Assembly: GCA_964584985.1 (NCBI GenBank)
Contig: CAZPBK010000006.1
Location: 1 to 55,037, forward strand
DNA length: 55,037 nt
Source: an uncultured Gammaproteobacteria bacterium
GTDB taxonomy: Bacteria > Patescibacteriota > Patescibacteriia > UBA11705 > JABHMO01
Direction: 5' to 3'
Made by a program: the position numbers and the translations under genes. Under the pieces are notes generated by a model. The model ran no database searches, was not told where the DNA came from, and saw only the letters and a program-made list of their open reading frames with translations. Positions within the stretch are counted from its first letter, which is position 1, and each line of letters begins with the position of its first letter. Below are positions 19,528 to 23,912 of the stretch, piece by piece.

Positions 19528-20040
19528 TTATTTTATTACTTTATATCTCAGATTAATAACATTTTTATCCAGTTTGTTTATTTCCAATAATTCCAGTTTT
19601 TTATTTAAATCCAAATTCTTAAACAAGGTTAAGCCCCCGCCAAATATAAGCGGTTCAACGGTTAACCGGATTTCATCTATTAAATTTTCTTGTAAAAACA
19701 GAGAATTTATTGAGGTGCCACCACCTAAAATCACTTGGTCAAAGCCTTGTTTTCTTAAATATTTTAAAATTTCAGTTGGTTGGAGTTTGGTATATTCCAA
19801 TTGTCCGGGAATGGTTTTTTCTTTTTTCGGATGATGAGTCATTATTAAGTTTAGTCGTCCGGGCAGGGGACGACCAATGGTTTTATAAGTGGACAGTCCC
19901 ATGATTATAGCGCCGGCTTTTTTGGTTTGTTCAATAAAAATTTTTTTGTCAGCCTCAGAGCTCCAGTCGGTTGAATTTTGTTTACTGGATTTGGCTATAA
20001 AACCATCGGCGGTCATGACCATCATTAGGATAACTTTCAT
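19528..20040 (-). CDS. RibD C-terminal domain / dihydrofolate-reductase-family protein
   Basis: MKVILMMVMTADGFIA...WSS..D, IIMGLSTYKTIGRPLPGR and VILGGGTSIN are typical of the PF01872-type reductase fold. Confidence 0.75.
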   Translation of the reverse strand: MKVILMMVMTADGFIAKSSKQNSTDWSSEADKKIFIEQTKKAGAIIMGLSTYKTIGRPLPGRLNLIMTHHPKKEKTIPGQLEYTKLQPTEILKYLRKQGFDQVILGGGTSINSLFLQENLIDEIRLTVEPLIFGGGLTLFKNLDLNKKLELLEINKLDKNVINLRYKVIK

Positions 20041-20245
20041 GGGGGAAGGACATTTAAAAATTATTTTGATTTGATAGATTTAATCCGAATATTAAAATTA
20101 AAATAAAAACAAGAAATAAAGAAAAAAGGGTATTTGTGAATATGTAAAAAATTTAAAACGAATTATTAAAGAAATAAAGAAAAAGGGAAAAAGGGCATCA
20201 AAACATTATTATTTCAAAACAAACATATATTAAAGAATAATATAG

Positions 20246-20266
20246 GGACAAAATATTATTTTGTCC
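20246..20266. repeat. 9-bp-stem hairpin GGACAAAAT-ATT-ATTTTGTCC (possible thyA terminator, or a REP-related core)
   Basis: Perfect inverted repeat 30 nt downstream of the thyA-like stop. Preceded by TAGGGACA, as in the RayT-associated palindromes. Confidence 0.4.
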
Positions 20267-20296
20267 GAAACTTTTTTCGTGTTTTGAACATTTTGG

Positions 20297-21163
20297 CTAT
20301 AAAACGATCTTCATCCCTTTGATCGGACCCAGTGGTTTATATTGCTTTTGTAGTTTATCGGTAATTTCCTTGGCCAGTTCAATATCTCCGGTTTCTGCTC
20401 GATCAAAATAATCAGGTTGAGCGTGAAAATTGATCGGCGGATGATCATTGGCTCGTTCGGTTAATTCCCAGGCTTGTTTAAAATGAATATCATAAATATG
20501 AGCATTGGAAATGCTATGAGTCAATTTTCCGGGTTGAACACCCAATTTAGCCGCTAAAATACAAAGCAAAAGATAAAATCCGGCCACATCATGCGGACAA
20601 CCGAGCATCATATCATTGGATCTGACTATTGAGTGAATATGAAGTTTGTTGCCAATAATATTGGCGGTCCAAGTATAAGGGCAAGGGATATTTTTCTTTG
20701 TTTGCGGATTGCCCAATCCGTCTTCTCGTGGATCCCAAGTAATAACCACGCCATGGCGGGAACCCGGTTTTTCAGTTAAATGTTCGACCAAAAGGCCGAG
20801 CTGGTCTCGGCCAAAGGCTTGGCGCCATCTATGTCCGTAAGCGGCCGGAATGGTGCCGTCTTGTTCAGTAAAATCCTGCCATATTTTAGTAAATTTGTTT
20901 ACATAATCATCCGGATGTTTGCTACCCATAATAAACCAAATTTGTTCGGCCACAAATATTTTGATGGGAATTTTTCTTAAAGTTAAAAGCGGAAATCCCT
21001 CATCCAATTCAAAGGTTAAACCGGGAATGACTTTACAAACATGACCGGTGCGTTCATTAAGCTCATCATAGCCTTTATTCATTATTTTCATTATTCCAGC
21101 TTTGTATTGTCGGTCAAACTGAGTCATTTTATATGGATTAGGGGTAGTTAAGCTTATAATCAT
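20297..21163 (-). CDS. thyA: thymidylate synthase (ThyA) family enzyme, divergent, with Asp at the Asn177-equivalent position
   Basis: NERTG, FPLLTLRK, AEQIWF, AAYGHRWR, catalytic Cys in NIPCPY, VRSNDMMLGCPHDVAGFY and NAHIYD. The start may instead be MTQFDRQY at 21127. Confidence 0.8.
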   Translation of the reverse strand: MIISLTTPNPYKMTQFDRQYKAGIMKIMNKGYDELNERTGHVCKVIPGLTFELDEGFPLLTLRKIPIKIFVAEQIWFIMGSKHPDDYVNKFTKIWQDFTEQDGTIPAAYGHRWRQAFGRDQLGLLVEHLTEKPGSRHGVVITWDPREDGLGNPQTKKNIPCPYTWTANIIGNKLHIHSIVRSNDMMLGCPHDVAGFYLLLCILAAKLGVQPGKLTHSISNAHIYDIHFKQAWELTERANDHPPINFHAQPDYFDRAETGDIELAKEITDKLQKQYKPLGPIKGMKIVL

Positions 21164-21591: not shown

Positions 21592-22275
21592 TTATTTTAT
21601 TTCCAGTTTAAGGCCTGGTCCCATGGAAGAGCAAATACTGATATTTTTTATAAAAACTCCTTTGGCTGAGTCGGGTTTGGCTGCTTGCACCGCTTGCATA
21701 AAGGTTTCATAATTTTCAATCAGAGCTTTGTTATCGGTGCTGACTTTACCAATAGCTTGATGAATATTGGCAGAATCGTCATTTTTAAAAGCAATTTTGC
21801 CTTTTTTCAACTCGCCAATGGTTTTTTCCAGATCTTTGGCTATGGTATCGTTTTTTGGTGAGGGCATTAATCCTTTTGGACCAAGTGTTTTAGCCAAAGG
21901 AGCCAGACTTTTCATGGTTTCCGGACAAGCTACCGCCAAATCAAAATTAATTTTCCCTTTTTTGGCAAAATCAACGATTTCATCCTCGGTAATAACCAAG
22001 TCGGCGCCGGCTTTTTCCGCTTCTTGTTTTTTGCTTTCAGGTACAAAAGCGGCGATTTTTTTTGCTTTGCCGAACTTATGGGGCAGAACGGTGGTGCTTC
22101 TGACTTGTTGTTCGCCTTTTTTTGGATTGATGTTCAAGCGGATGTGAACTTCAATTGTTTCGTCAAAATTGGCGGTAGAGGTCTTTTTTACCAATTCTAC
22201 TGCTTTTTCTATCGGGTATGATTTTTTCGGATCTATCTCCGAATATAATTTTTTCATGCGTTTGTTTTTGGCCAT
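21592..22275 (-). CDS. rplA: 50S ribosomal protein L1
   Basis: MAKNKRMKKLYSEIDPKKSYPIEKAV...FDETIEVHIRLNINPKK matches L1. Confidence 0.96.
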   Translation of the reverse strand: MAKNKRMKKLYSEIDPKKSYPIEKAVELVKKTSTANFDETIEVHIRLNINPKKGEQQVRSTTVLPHKFGKAKKIAAFVPESKKQEAEKAGADLVITEDEIVDFAKKGKINFDLAVACPETMKSLAPLAKTLGPKGLMPSPKNDTIAKDLEKTIGELKKGKIAFKNDDSANIHQAIGKVSTDNKALIENYETFMQAVQAAKPDSAKGVFIKNISICSSMGPGLKLEIK

Positions 22276-22284
22276 AGTGTTTGT

Positions 22285-22308
22285 ATTATTATTATTATTA
22301 TTATTATT
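22285..22308. repeat. (ATT)8 microsatellite, read as (AAU)8 in the rplA 5' leader
   Basis: Eight perfect ATT units ending 10 nt upstream of the rplA start codon. Confidence 0.95.
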
Positions 22309-22312
22309 TTAA

Positions 22313-22338
22313 TAAAAAATCGTGGCCGGGAGCCACGA
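22313..22338 (-). terminator. terminator-like hairpin immediately upstream of rplA
   Basis: Minus-strand RNA reads UCGUGGC-UCCCG-GCCACGA followed by UUUUUU, 38 nt before the rplA AUG. Confidence 0.55.
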
Positions 22339-22495
22339 CCCGGCCGGCAAAGCCGGCCTTGGCGGCCGCACATATTTTTCAATTGCGCGGACAGAATAAT
22401 TTTTGTCCGCGTAATCAATTTGGAGTTTTGCTGCCGCCGGCGGCGATATTTCGCCGCGGGTCGTGGTCAAGCGTCCCTGGAAAGGGGACTTCCAC
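22313..22495 (-). promoter_or_regulatory. GC-rich multi-helix RNA element in the rplK-rplA spacer (candidate attenuator / r-protein leader; alternatively a REP-like cluster)
   Basis: G+C is 42/60 at 22321-22380, against about 27% in flanking genes. Local hairpins lie at 22342-22358, 22386-22411, 22441-22456 and 22473-22489. A long-range 10-bp helix (22333-22342 with 22457-22466) competes with the terminator stem. Confidence 0.5.
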
Positions 22496-22526
22496 AACAT
22501 TTAATATAAGTTGTTAAAAGGATGAG

Positions 22527-22949
22527 TTATTTGATCTTTACTCCCATTTGTCGGGCGGTTCCGGCCACTATTTTCATAGCCGCTTCAATGTTGTCGGTAT
22601 TTAGATCCGGCAATTTAATTTCAGCGATTTCTCGGACTTGATCTTTGGTCAGTTTTCCGGCTGTTTCGGTCAAAGGATTGCCGGCACCTTTTTTTATGCT
22701 CCCCAGTTTTTTTATCAGTTCGGCGGTCGGTGGTGTTTTGGTGATAAAATCAAAGGAACGATCTTCGTAAACAGTGATTTCCACCGGGATGACATCGTTT
22801 CCTTTGTCTTTGGTGGCTTCATTAAATTGGTTGCAGAAATCTTGAATAGTGATTCCATGCTGACCCAGCGCCGGTCCGACCGGTGGAGCCGGAGTGGCTT
22901 TTCCCGCCGGAATTTGCAATTTGATTTTGGTTAATTCTTTTTTAGCCAT
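22527..22949 (-). CDS. rplK: 50S ribosomal protein L11
   Basis: [33 protein letters not shown] matches L11. Start set at 22949. Confidence 0.96.
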
Positions 22950-23033
22950 AATTTTTAGCGCCAAGGTATCTTTATAAAGTTCACAAAACTTCAAACTTTA
23001 TAAAAAATCTCGGCAACTGGATTATATTATTTT

Positions 23034-23576
23034 CTAAATTTTTTTTACTTGAAGATAATCAAGCTCAACCGGTGTTTCTCGTCCGAACATACTGACCAAA
23101 ACTTTTATTTTACCTCTTTCTTCATCAACGGCTGATACTTTTCCTTCAAACCCCTTGAAGGGTCCGTCAGTAATTTTAACCGGAGTGTCGGGAGTAACAT
23201 CAATGGTATATTTCGGTTCTTCCACGCCCATTCTTTTTTGCAATTCTTTCATTTCATTGTCCGATATCGGAGTCGGAGTGGTTCCGGTACCGATAAATCC
23301 GGTGACATTCGGGGTGTTTCTGACCACATACCAAGAGTCGTCAGTGACCAACATTTCCACAAAAACATAGCCCGGAAAAATTTTTTCGGTAATAATTTTC
23401 CTTTTACCGTTTTTTATTTTGATTTTTTTCTCCGTGGGGATCAGGATATTGAAAATTTTATCTTCCATGTCCATTGATTCAATCCTTTGTTTTAAGTTTT
23501 CCGCAACATTTTCTTCATATCCCGAATAGGTATGTATTACATACCAGCGGCGTCCACGGCCTACTTGTTTTGGCAT
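23034..23576 (-). CDS. nusG: transcription termination/antitermination factor NusG
   Basis: WYVIHTYSGYEENV NGN domain and a KOW domain with GPFKGFEGKV. Lies in the secE-nusG-rplK order. Confidence 0.95.
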   Translation of the reverse strand: MPKQVGRGRRWYVIHTYSGYEENVAENLKQRIESMDMEDKIFNILIPTEKKIKIKNGKRKIITEKIFPGYVFVEMLVTDDSWYVVRNTPNVTGFIGTGTTPTPISDNEMKELQKRMGVEEPKYTIDVTPDTPVKITDGPFKGFEGKVSAVDEERGKIKVLVSMFGRETPVELDYLQVKKI

Positions 23577-23609
23577 AAATTATTTTATGTTTAGTGTTTT
23601 TGTTTTTAC

Positions 23610-23801
23610 CTATAGAAAAAAGGCCAGAATTTTGGAAAAAATAAAGTCCAAAATTCCCAAAAAAGCGGCTACAAACAAGCTTAGTCCTATGACAATCAGG
23701 GTGTGTTTGATTGTTTCTTTTTTTGTCGGCCAAGTAACCTTTTTTAACTCTTGCTTGGATTCCGATAGATAATTAACCAATTTGTTTTGTGTTAGATTCA
23801 T
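23610..23801 (-). CDS. secE: preprotein translocase subunit SecE
   Basis: 63 aa with ELKKVTWPTKKET followed by a single TM helix. Lies upstream of nusG. Confidence 0.85.
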   Translation of the reverse strand: MNLTQNKLVNYLSESKQELKKVTWPTKKETIKHTLIVIGLSLFVAAFLGILDFIFSKILAFFL

Positions 23802-23912
23802 ATAAGTGAAAACCACTAAGATTATTTTTTGTTCTTAATTTAGATTAAATCTTAGCTATGTTTCAGTTAGATTAAAGTATTCTAAAAAGGGCGTTTAGCC
23901 CTGTTTAATTGT

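Follow-up and report, generated by a model that had tools for sequence, protein, structure and literature searches.

A candidate L1-responsive attenuator between rplK and rplA in a candidate phyla radiation bacterium

What is a long, GC-rich and highly structured spacer doing between the genes for ribosomal proteins L11 and L1 in an AT-rich bacterial genome? The question is raised by a 55,037-nt stretch of DNA, contig CAZPBK010000006.1 of assembly GCA_964584985.1, which we call the window in its entirety and which, at 38% G+C, belongs to a low-G+C bacterium of the candidate phyla radiation (CPR). Its minus strand carries secE, nusG, rplK (22949–22527, encoding L11) and rplA (22275–21592, encoding L1) in that order, with 251 nt (22526–22276) between the last two. 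An earlier, sequence-only reading had drawn attention to a compositional island in this spacer and to a set of RNA helices that it took for a ligand- or L1-controlled attenuator of rplA. The island and the helices are real: G+C reaches 0.70 at 22321–22380 and 0.57 at 22313–22495, against 0.38 in the whole window, and every helix that had been listed is found at the same minus-strand positions. From our analysis, all of whose results are computational, we conclude with moderate confidence that the spacer is an L1 autoregulatory leader in which three structures compete, namely an operator, an antiterminator and a terminator; folding models suggest that excess L1 probably stops transcription before rplA.

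The proposed sensor of this leader is a short structure at its upstream end. L1 binds helices H76–H78 of 23S rRNA, and its sites on messenger RNA mimic that rRNA site (PMC10931766). Depending on the phylum, these sites are found ahead of rplK or in the rplK-rplA spacer (PMC3616713), and the operators that have been described contain an internal bulge with a G-A pair and then an unpaired A (Fu et al. 2013, PMC3616713). Positions 22497–22461 of the minus strand (core 22495–22463), downstream of the rplK stop codon (22527) and upstream of the rplA AUG (22275), hold such a structure, whose core reads GUGG-AA-GUCCC..GGGAC-GCUUGA-CCAC. Its outer helix, P1, pairs UUGUGG (22497–22492) with CCACGA (22466–22461), and its inner helix, P2, is the hairpin GUCCC-CUUUCCA-GGGAC (22489–22473); the two are separated by AA on the 5' side (22491–22490) and by GCUUGA on the 3' side (22472–22467). 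The bulge thus has the shape described for L1 operators, with one conserved letter, in the G-A pair, different. The operator letters match the GGUGGGAG...AUACCACC of 23S rRNA, the reference being that of E. coli; in all 5426 E. coli genomes, the annotated 23S rRNA gene covers the sequence GGUGGGAG...GAAAUACCACC.

Within the window the motif is present once, and it is widely conserved upstream of rplA. A comparison of rplK-rplA spacers drew on 34 loci from genomes and 65 from metagenomes, which collapse to 66 distinct sequences, and the motif GUGG-RA-hairpin-7 nt-CCAC precedes rplA in 51 of these 66 distinct relatives. The 2-nt bulge on the 5' side is GA in 45 of the 51 tabulated sites and AA in 6 (the window and five others), and the 3' bulge, which mostly starts with G and ends in A, is 7 nt long in 46 of the 51, while the hairpin between them varies in length and sequence. 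The relatives' leaders carry GUGGGAG-hairpin-NNNNNNA-CCAC, a mimic of the L1 site of E. coli 23S rRNA. P2 is paired in 96.7% of the cells of a collapsed 46-site alignment and shows changes on both sides at 4 of 4 counted pairs, figures that are favored by our having defined its pairs by folding each sequence; P1 is invariant in the same alignment but for a single compensatory change, GCGG/CCGC. When 1.06 Mb (all loci, both strands) were scanned for the structured motif, 92 matches resulted, of which 77 fall in the 330 nt upstream of rplA. In shape, position, rRNA mimicry and conservation, and with one conserved letter different, 22497–22461 appears by its sequence to be a member of the known L1 operator class, and we infer that L1 binds it. 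Given the conservation of the motif and its match to 23S rRNA, the first hairpin and the strand CCACGACCCG, which the sequence-only reading had listed as separate items, are parts of one canonical L1 operator. We place the sensor at 22497–22461 and not in the GC-rich multi-helix body farther downstream, which is not conserved in sequence.

Beyond the operator, the spacer can fold in two further ways that exclude each other. The strand CCACGACCCG (22466–22457) is the 5' strand of an antiterminator, whose 3' strand, CGGGUCGUGG (22342–22333), overlaps the 5' arm of a terminator-like hairpin, UCGUGGC-UCCCG-GCCACGA (22338–22320), which a terminator scan finds followed by U6 (22319–22314), 38 nt before the AUG. 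At the other end, the first 4–6 nt of the antiterminator 5' strand are also the 3' strand of P1, CCAC(GA), so that operator and antiterminator are mutually exclusive as well, and the operator would act as an anti-antiterminator. The minimum free energy (MFE) of the spacer is -95 kcal/mol, compared with -61.4 +/- 4.3 for 200 dinucleotide shuffles (z = -7.86; 0 of 200 as stable), and its predicted fold includes the 10-bp long-range helix closing three inner hairpins. The exclusivity of this helix and the terminator had been noted before from the overlap at the terminator 5' arm, and it is borne out by the equilibrium ensemble, in which the antiterminator has a probability of 0.95 and the terminator one of 0.05, as has P1.

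Comparing the two conformers by folding points in the same direction. When the leader is folded as a series of growing prefixes, the operator forms once it has been transcribed and persists through the three inner hairpins (H-a, H-b and H-c), to be displaced only upon the emergence of CGGGUCGUGG at 22342–22333. Enforcing P1 in the window leader costs 2.5 kcal/mol and moves the fold to the terminator. As the repressive output in the window, sequestration of the ribosome-binding region was considered and rejected: the unpaired fraction of the rplA initiation region is 0.67 in the free leader and 0.84 with the operator enforced. With the initiation region mostly unpaired in both states, termination is the only repressive output that is visible in the window.

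The mechanism that we infer would work as follows. The operator would fold first during transcription and persist while the junction of about 115 nt is being made. When L1 is scarce, the emerging 3' strand would displace the weak operator helix and form the antiterminator, and the polymerase would read into rplA. Free L1 in excess over new rRNA would instead keep the operator closed; the 3' strand would then pair with GCCACGA to form the terminator, and transcription would stop 38 nt before rplA, leaving the synthesis of L11 from the upstream cistron unaffected.

The same three-strand logic recurs in the window's clade, by which we mean leaders from relatives with 59–68% L1 identity. The best L1 matches are metagenome-assembled genomes of Falkowbacteria, Kuenenbacteria and Magasanikbacteria at no more than 68% identity, and we found the layout in 22 leaders and tabulated its strands for 20. 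In this clade the operator lies 59–291 nt from the AUG, as against 3–24 nt in most relatives at or below 57% L1 identity, which is the classical translational arrangement. Across the 20 leaders, a 5' strand CCACGAYCC pairs with a conserved downstream GGRUCGUG(G) over 7–11 pairs; among the 17 distinct sequences, this helix is 79% paired, compared with 29–44% when the partner is slid, and its covariation score lies above all 500 of 500 shuffles. The conserved 3' strand overlaps the 5' arm of a hairpin with a U-tract in 20 of 20 leaders. When the four operator pairs are enforced to imitate bound L1, every one of the 20 folds into the terminator, at a cost of 0–5.5 kcal/mol, and unconstrained folding gives the antiterminator in 15.

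What varies from one sublineage to the next is the 3' arm of the terminator. It is a copy of CCACGA in the window and in L043/L105, L002, L003, L106 and L114 (the terminators of L106 and L114 have compensating changes in both arms), GAYCCA or GACCC in L001, L040, L044, L110, L111 and L112, and of an ACCCUU type in L004, L005, L047–L050 and L109. This variation implies that the terminator was rebuilt on the same strand in different registers, with the competition kept. In eight leaders the U-tract ends only 2–5 nt before the AUG, so that rplA would be expressed there solely by read-through. Related spacers share the operator and the antiterminator, with P2 covarying; the sequence of the island is not conserved. 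Eight leaders of more distant relatives (L008, L013, L014, L033, L054, L056, L060 and L071) have the operator 46–76 nt from the AUG with a long hairpin between and no U-tract, and they may represent a third type of expression platform.

Several observations weigh against the attenuator. The window operator itself departs from the consensus, with GUGGAAG where GUGGGAG is near-invariant, so that the proposed G-A pair becomes A-A, and with a 3' bulge of 6 nt instead of 7. Covariation in the antiterminator is modest, with few true double-sided changes, and its core, ACGAYCC/GGRUCGU, is kept mostly as sequence. With L1 bound, the inner 5–6 bp of the antiterminator, GACCCG/CGGGUC, could still pair, in which case the terminator would begin as a 6-bp stem and need branch migration to reach 7 bp. 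In 5 of the 20 leaders, the terminator is already the unconstrained MFE fold, and the switch would have to be kinetic there. Finally, there is a weak promoter-like match (9 of 12 positions) in an AAU repeat downstream of the window terminator, and the match before the window operator reaches only 8 of 12, compared with strong ones in several relatives, which leaves the transcript architecture of the window uncertain.

L1 might bind the operator and yet regulate by other means, the hairpin and U-tract being a constitutive, leaky 3' end or stabilizer of the secE-nusG-rplK message, or an element acting on translation or decay. This is what precedent would suggest, as all published L1 regulation is translational, and in the eight leaders with a U-tract at 2–5 nt from the AUG the hairpin could impede initiation by hindering 30S loading; the five leaders whose MFE fold is the terminator and the promoter-like match downstream of the window terminator also fit. 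In the window, however, 38 nt separate the hairpin from the AUG, and neither conformer closes the initiation region, which is more open in the mimic of the L1-bound state. A conserved complementary strand overlapping the operator would be superfluous for a plain operon-end terminator. A separate promoter has no space where the U-tract abuts the AUG, which means that the terminator must be conditional or leaky; with read-through obligatory, a simple operon-end terminator is ruled out in those eight leaders. We therefore regard an output other than termination as improbable, and as most plausible where the hairpin abuts the AUG. Our literature search for L1-dependent attenuation, for L1 together with Term-seq and for CPR leaders found none; in all the cases in the literature searched, L1 regulation is described as translational, and an attenuator form is not described for L1. 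In the attenuator that we favor, the sensor belongs to a known class, and its coupling to an antiterminator and a terminator is what sets it apart.

The GC-rich core that first attracted attention to the locus occupies the loop of the antiterminator. It spans 114 nt (22456–22343) and folds into three hairpins, which form a four-way junction with the closing helix: H-a, CGGCGA-AAUA-UCGCCG (22456–22441); H-b, GGCGGC...GCCGCC (22438–22361), which encloses CGCGGACA..UGUCCGCG; and H-c, GGCCGGC-UUU-GCCGGCC (22358–22342). The hairpin at the center of H-b, CGCGGACA-AAAAUUAUUC-UGUCCGCG (22411–22386), belongs to a family of GGACA-N10-11-UGUCC palindromes. Loop content differs from genome to genome, and most clade members have one small hairpin there. 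Three-hairpin loops of unlike sequence stand at the same position in L043/L105/L108, in L003 (nested in an extra helix) and in L114, and the window's central hairpin, GCGGACAAAAAUUAUUCUGUCCGC, resembles the GGGACAGAAUAGUAUUCUGUCCC found at the same place in L043/L105/L108. A repeat finder, blastn at word size 7 and nhmmer found no second copy of the island either in the window or among the 34 loci taken from relatives' genomes, and returned only chance matches of at most 18 nt. The nearest non-identical L1 is 68% identical, and the five other contigs with an identical L1 belong to the same strain; their leader is identical save for one AAU unit fewer in one sample.

Could this core be an insertion without a function? 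It is doubtful, if by no means far-fetched, that 22456–22343 is a repeat-derived element resembling a repetitive extragenic palindrome (REP) or a miniature inverted-repeat transposable element (MITE), and such an origin would concern the island only and be compatible with an L1 attenuator around it. Its sequence is kept in no relative, most of which in the clade have a single small loop hairpin; its central hairpin is one of five GGACA-N10-11-TGTCC matches in the 55-kb window, where 0.13 are expected by chance; and other GC-rich hairpin modules recur around rplA, including in the antiterminator loop of L003. As a unit, however, the island has no second copy in the window, and H-a and H-c are unique in it; a translated search with the 63-aa frame across the island, used as a proxy for copies in public assemblies, recovers nothing but that frame. 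Scattered copies, the mark of a mobile repeat, thus exist for the 20-nt central palindrome and not, in the window and the 34 relatives' loci, for the island as a whole. We found no terminal repeats or target duplications belonging to the island. The flanking 10-bp inverted repeat was considered as a transposon end and rejected: CCACGACCCG/CGGGUCGUGG recurs as CCACGAYCC/GGRUCGUGG in relatives that have no island, and it is the conserved antiterminator. A three-hairpin four-way junction of unrelated sequence in at least four lineages (the window, L043/L105/L108, L003 and L114) also stands against a functionless insertion and hints at selection for the architecture. A riboswitch aptamer that senses a small molecule and drives the terminator independently of L1 is a far weaker candidate, which we consider very improbable. 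Riboswitches typically have such a layout, a four-way junction whose closing helix competes with a terminator, but no Rfam family scores at or near threshold, the relatives share no conserved junction nucleotides and mostly have a single small hairpin there, and the regulated gene encodes a ribosomal protein with a recognizable protein operator attached. Rfam gave nothing at gathering score over the window and, at E ≤ 10 in the spacer and in that of a relative, matched no ribosomal protein leader or riboswitch family beyond a weak L20_leader hit; the best sub-threshold match in the window, the unrelated tfoR (26.8 bits against a gathering score of 70), aligns only the hairpins and the terminator. 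The ligand-controlled half of the earlier proposal is unsupported, with no Rfam match and no conserved core in the multi-helix part, and the L1-controlled half is supported by the 23S mimic and by the three-strand logic in 20 of 20 leaders. Least probable of all, to the point of being nearly negligible, is that the island encodes a 63-aa protein (22500–22309, minus strand). The frame is open from ATG to stop and has been annotated by gene callers on L037 and L038 (two public assemblies); a GC-rich stretch in an AT-rich genome is, however, stop-free by composition, the translated frame finds only itself among 5.8 billion protein clusters and has no Pfam domain, and the relatives' leaders have no corresponding open reading frame.

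If the spacer is an L1 attenuator, what is its loop for? Judging from the sequences, the loop appears to be a tolerant site that gathers stable local hairpins, some of them repeat-derived. We see the junction as a tolerated, lineage-variable loop expansion that may stabilize the antiterminator and give L1 more time to bind; it could possibly serve as a delay element or as a scaffold. A bolder idea, which we rate as a long shot, is that it provides a second input, through a factor that recognizes the GGACA..UGUCC hairpin and also binds the other copies of the palindrome in the genome. The leader would then respond to free L1 and a second signal together, or the bound factor would time the action of L1, and the three-hairpin junctions in four lineages would reflect selection for architecture.

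Members of the GGACA(G/A)AA..UU(C/U)UGUCC family lie at 489–509, 737–757, 785–805, 869–889, 20246–20266 and 22389–22408 (five exact pattern matches and one GGGCAGAACAATGTTCTGCCC variant); one copy sits in the thyA-folA spacer, and another is the center of the island in the rplA leader. They could be REP-like repeats, protein-binding sites or RNA hairpins. The region 471–948 is dense in repeats, with a 41-nt perfect palindrome, GCCGTTGTAGGGACAGAACA-G-TGTTCTGTCCCTACAACGGC, and an 84-bp unit present 2.3 times, each unit carrying GGGACAGAACATTGTTCTGTCC and then runs of TCCGGGATA; these repeats overlap a 248-aa open reading frame on the minus strand (510–1256). In related genomes we also observed a tandem GC-rich hairpin module, xGCCAAAGGCx-AUCCGCCUNNGGCGGA, followed by A-rich sequence, at 2737–2764 of L003, 9951–9978 and 10793–10805 of L106, 3680–3692 of L024 and 1147–1174 of L085. 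Around rplA it stands in the antiterminator loop (L003), past the terminator or past the rplA stop codon, and it resembles a hairpin element dispersed through these genomes.

The genes rplK and rplA were taken from the list of open reading frames; L1, at once the product of the regulated gene and the presumed effector, is identified by Pfam Ribosomal_L1, and L11 by Pfam Ribosomal_L11_N and Ribosomal_L11 on contigs of the same strain, whose match to the window is 99.9% or better and whose leader is identical. A promoter scan for consensus matches finds a sigma-70-type sequence, TTGACA-16-TATAAT (12 of 12), upstream of secE (23940–23913, minus strand), which by its sequence is likely the promoter of secE-nusG-rplK-rplA. 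In L043, L105, L106, L003, L109 and L111, near-consensus promoters (TTGACA-17-TAGAAT or TAATAT) about 10–18 nt upstream of the operator apparently give rplA a promoter of its own. A second terminator-like hairpin with a U-tract (21556–21538, minus strand), found by the terminator scan 36 nt past the rplA stop codon, suggests that intrinsic terminators are in use in the host. Between the U-tract of the leader and the rplA AUG, the 38-nt unstructured stretch contains an (AAU)8 microsatellite (22308–22285, minus strand; tandem repeat finder); it has 7 units in an SRR6056297 contig of the same strain, whose leader is otherwise identical. A scan of the region for tRNA and tmRNA genes found none. 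In this part of the window (19528–21163 and 21592–23816), rplA is succeeded by a small open reading frame on the opposite strand and then by thyA-folA-dcd (thymidylate synthase, dihydrofolate reductase and dCTP deaminase), and rplJ-rplL, which usually follow in most bacteria, are not there; the order from rplA to thyA-folA-dcd is kept in relatives at 66–67% L1 identity.

If the attenuator is real, a clade of the CPR has done for L1 what Bacillus did for L10 and L20 and connected the operator to a terminator/antiterminator switch, and sensors that mimic rRNA can be joined to various expression platforms, much like riboswitch aptamers. It would then count among the few concrete regulatory mechanisms proposed for uncultivated, ultra-small bacteria. 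L1 proteins and their sites function across species, so the switch could be tested by simple in vitro assays. The variable loop, which ranges from one hairpin to a 114-nt GC-rich junction, offers a natural series on the effect of loop size in a kinetic switch. We expect moderate interest among specialists in ribosomal autoregulation and in uncultivated bacteria.

How does this leader compare with known systems? As a sensor, it resembles the mRNA operators of L1 in the E. coli rplK leader, the Methanococcus vannielii L1 operon and the Geobacillus kaustophilus rplK-rplA site (PMC3616713), with which it shares its position on the message upstream of rplA, an irregular stem-loop with an internal bulge and an unpaired A, and mimicry of 23S rRNA. 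It differs from them in having A for G at the proposed G-A pair, a 6-nt 3' bulge and no match to an Rfam model, and above all in its setting: the operators described act on translation and adjoin the start codon, whereas those of the window's clade lie 59–291 nt from the AUG and are coupled to an antiterminator and a terminator. The rRNA original, the L1 stalk (H76–H78) of E. coli 23S rRNA, has the same GUGG/CCAC helix, the same GA(G) bulge and the same letters on the 3' side (...A-CCAC); in the mRNA copy a short hairpin replaces H78, as in other L1 operators, and the window copy carries one G-to-A substitution. A further likeness, to REP-like palindromes, is confined to the 20-nt GGACA..UGUCC hairpin, which has four further copies at or near intergenic positions of the window; only this central hairpin is repeated, not the island.

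The closest parallels to the proposed switch come from B. subtilis. For its rplJL leader, experiments have demonstrated L10(L12)4-dependent attenuation that uses an antiterminator, a terminator and an anti-antiterminator (Yakhnin et al. 2015, PMC4538822), the same logic of three structures that share strands, and protein binding is predicted to favor termination in the window as well. The effector there is L10(L12)4 instead of L1, the RNA motif is unrelated, and the window leader is known from sequence and folding. In the infC-rpmI-rplT leader, L20-dependent attenuation, likewise demonstrated by experiment, relies on rRNA mimicry (Choonee et al. 2007, PMC1865079). The two leaders have no homology in sequence or structure (the Rfam L20_leader model matches the L001 leader weakly, at 19 bits against a gathering score of 58.7), they would answer to different effectors, and the window element lies inside its operon, unlike that of L20, which stands at the 5' end; what they would share is an rRNA-mimic site upstream of a leader terminator and a protein that provokes premature termination.

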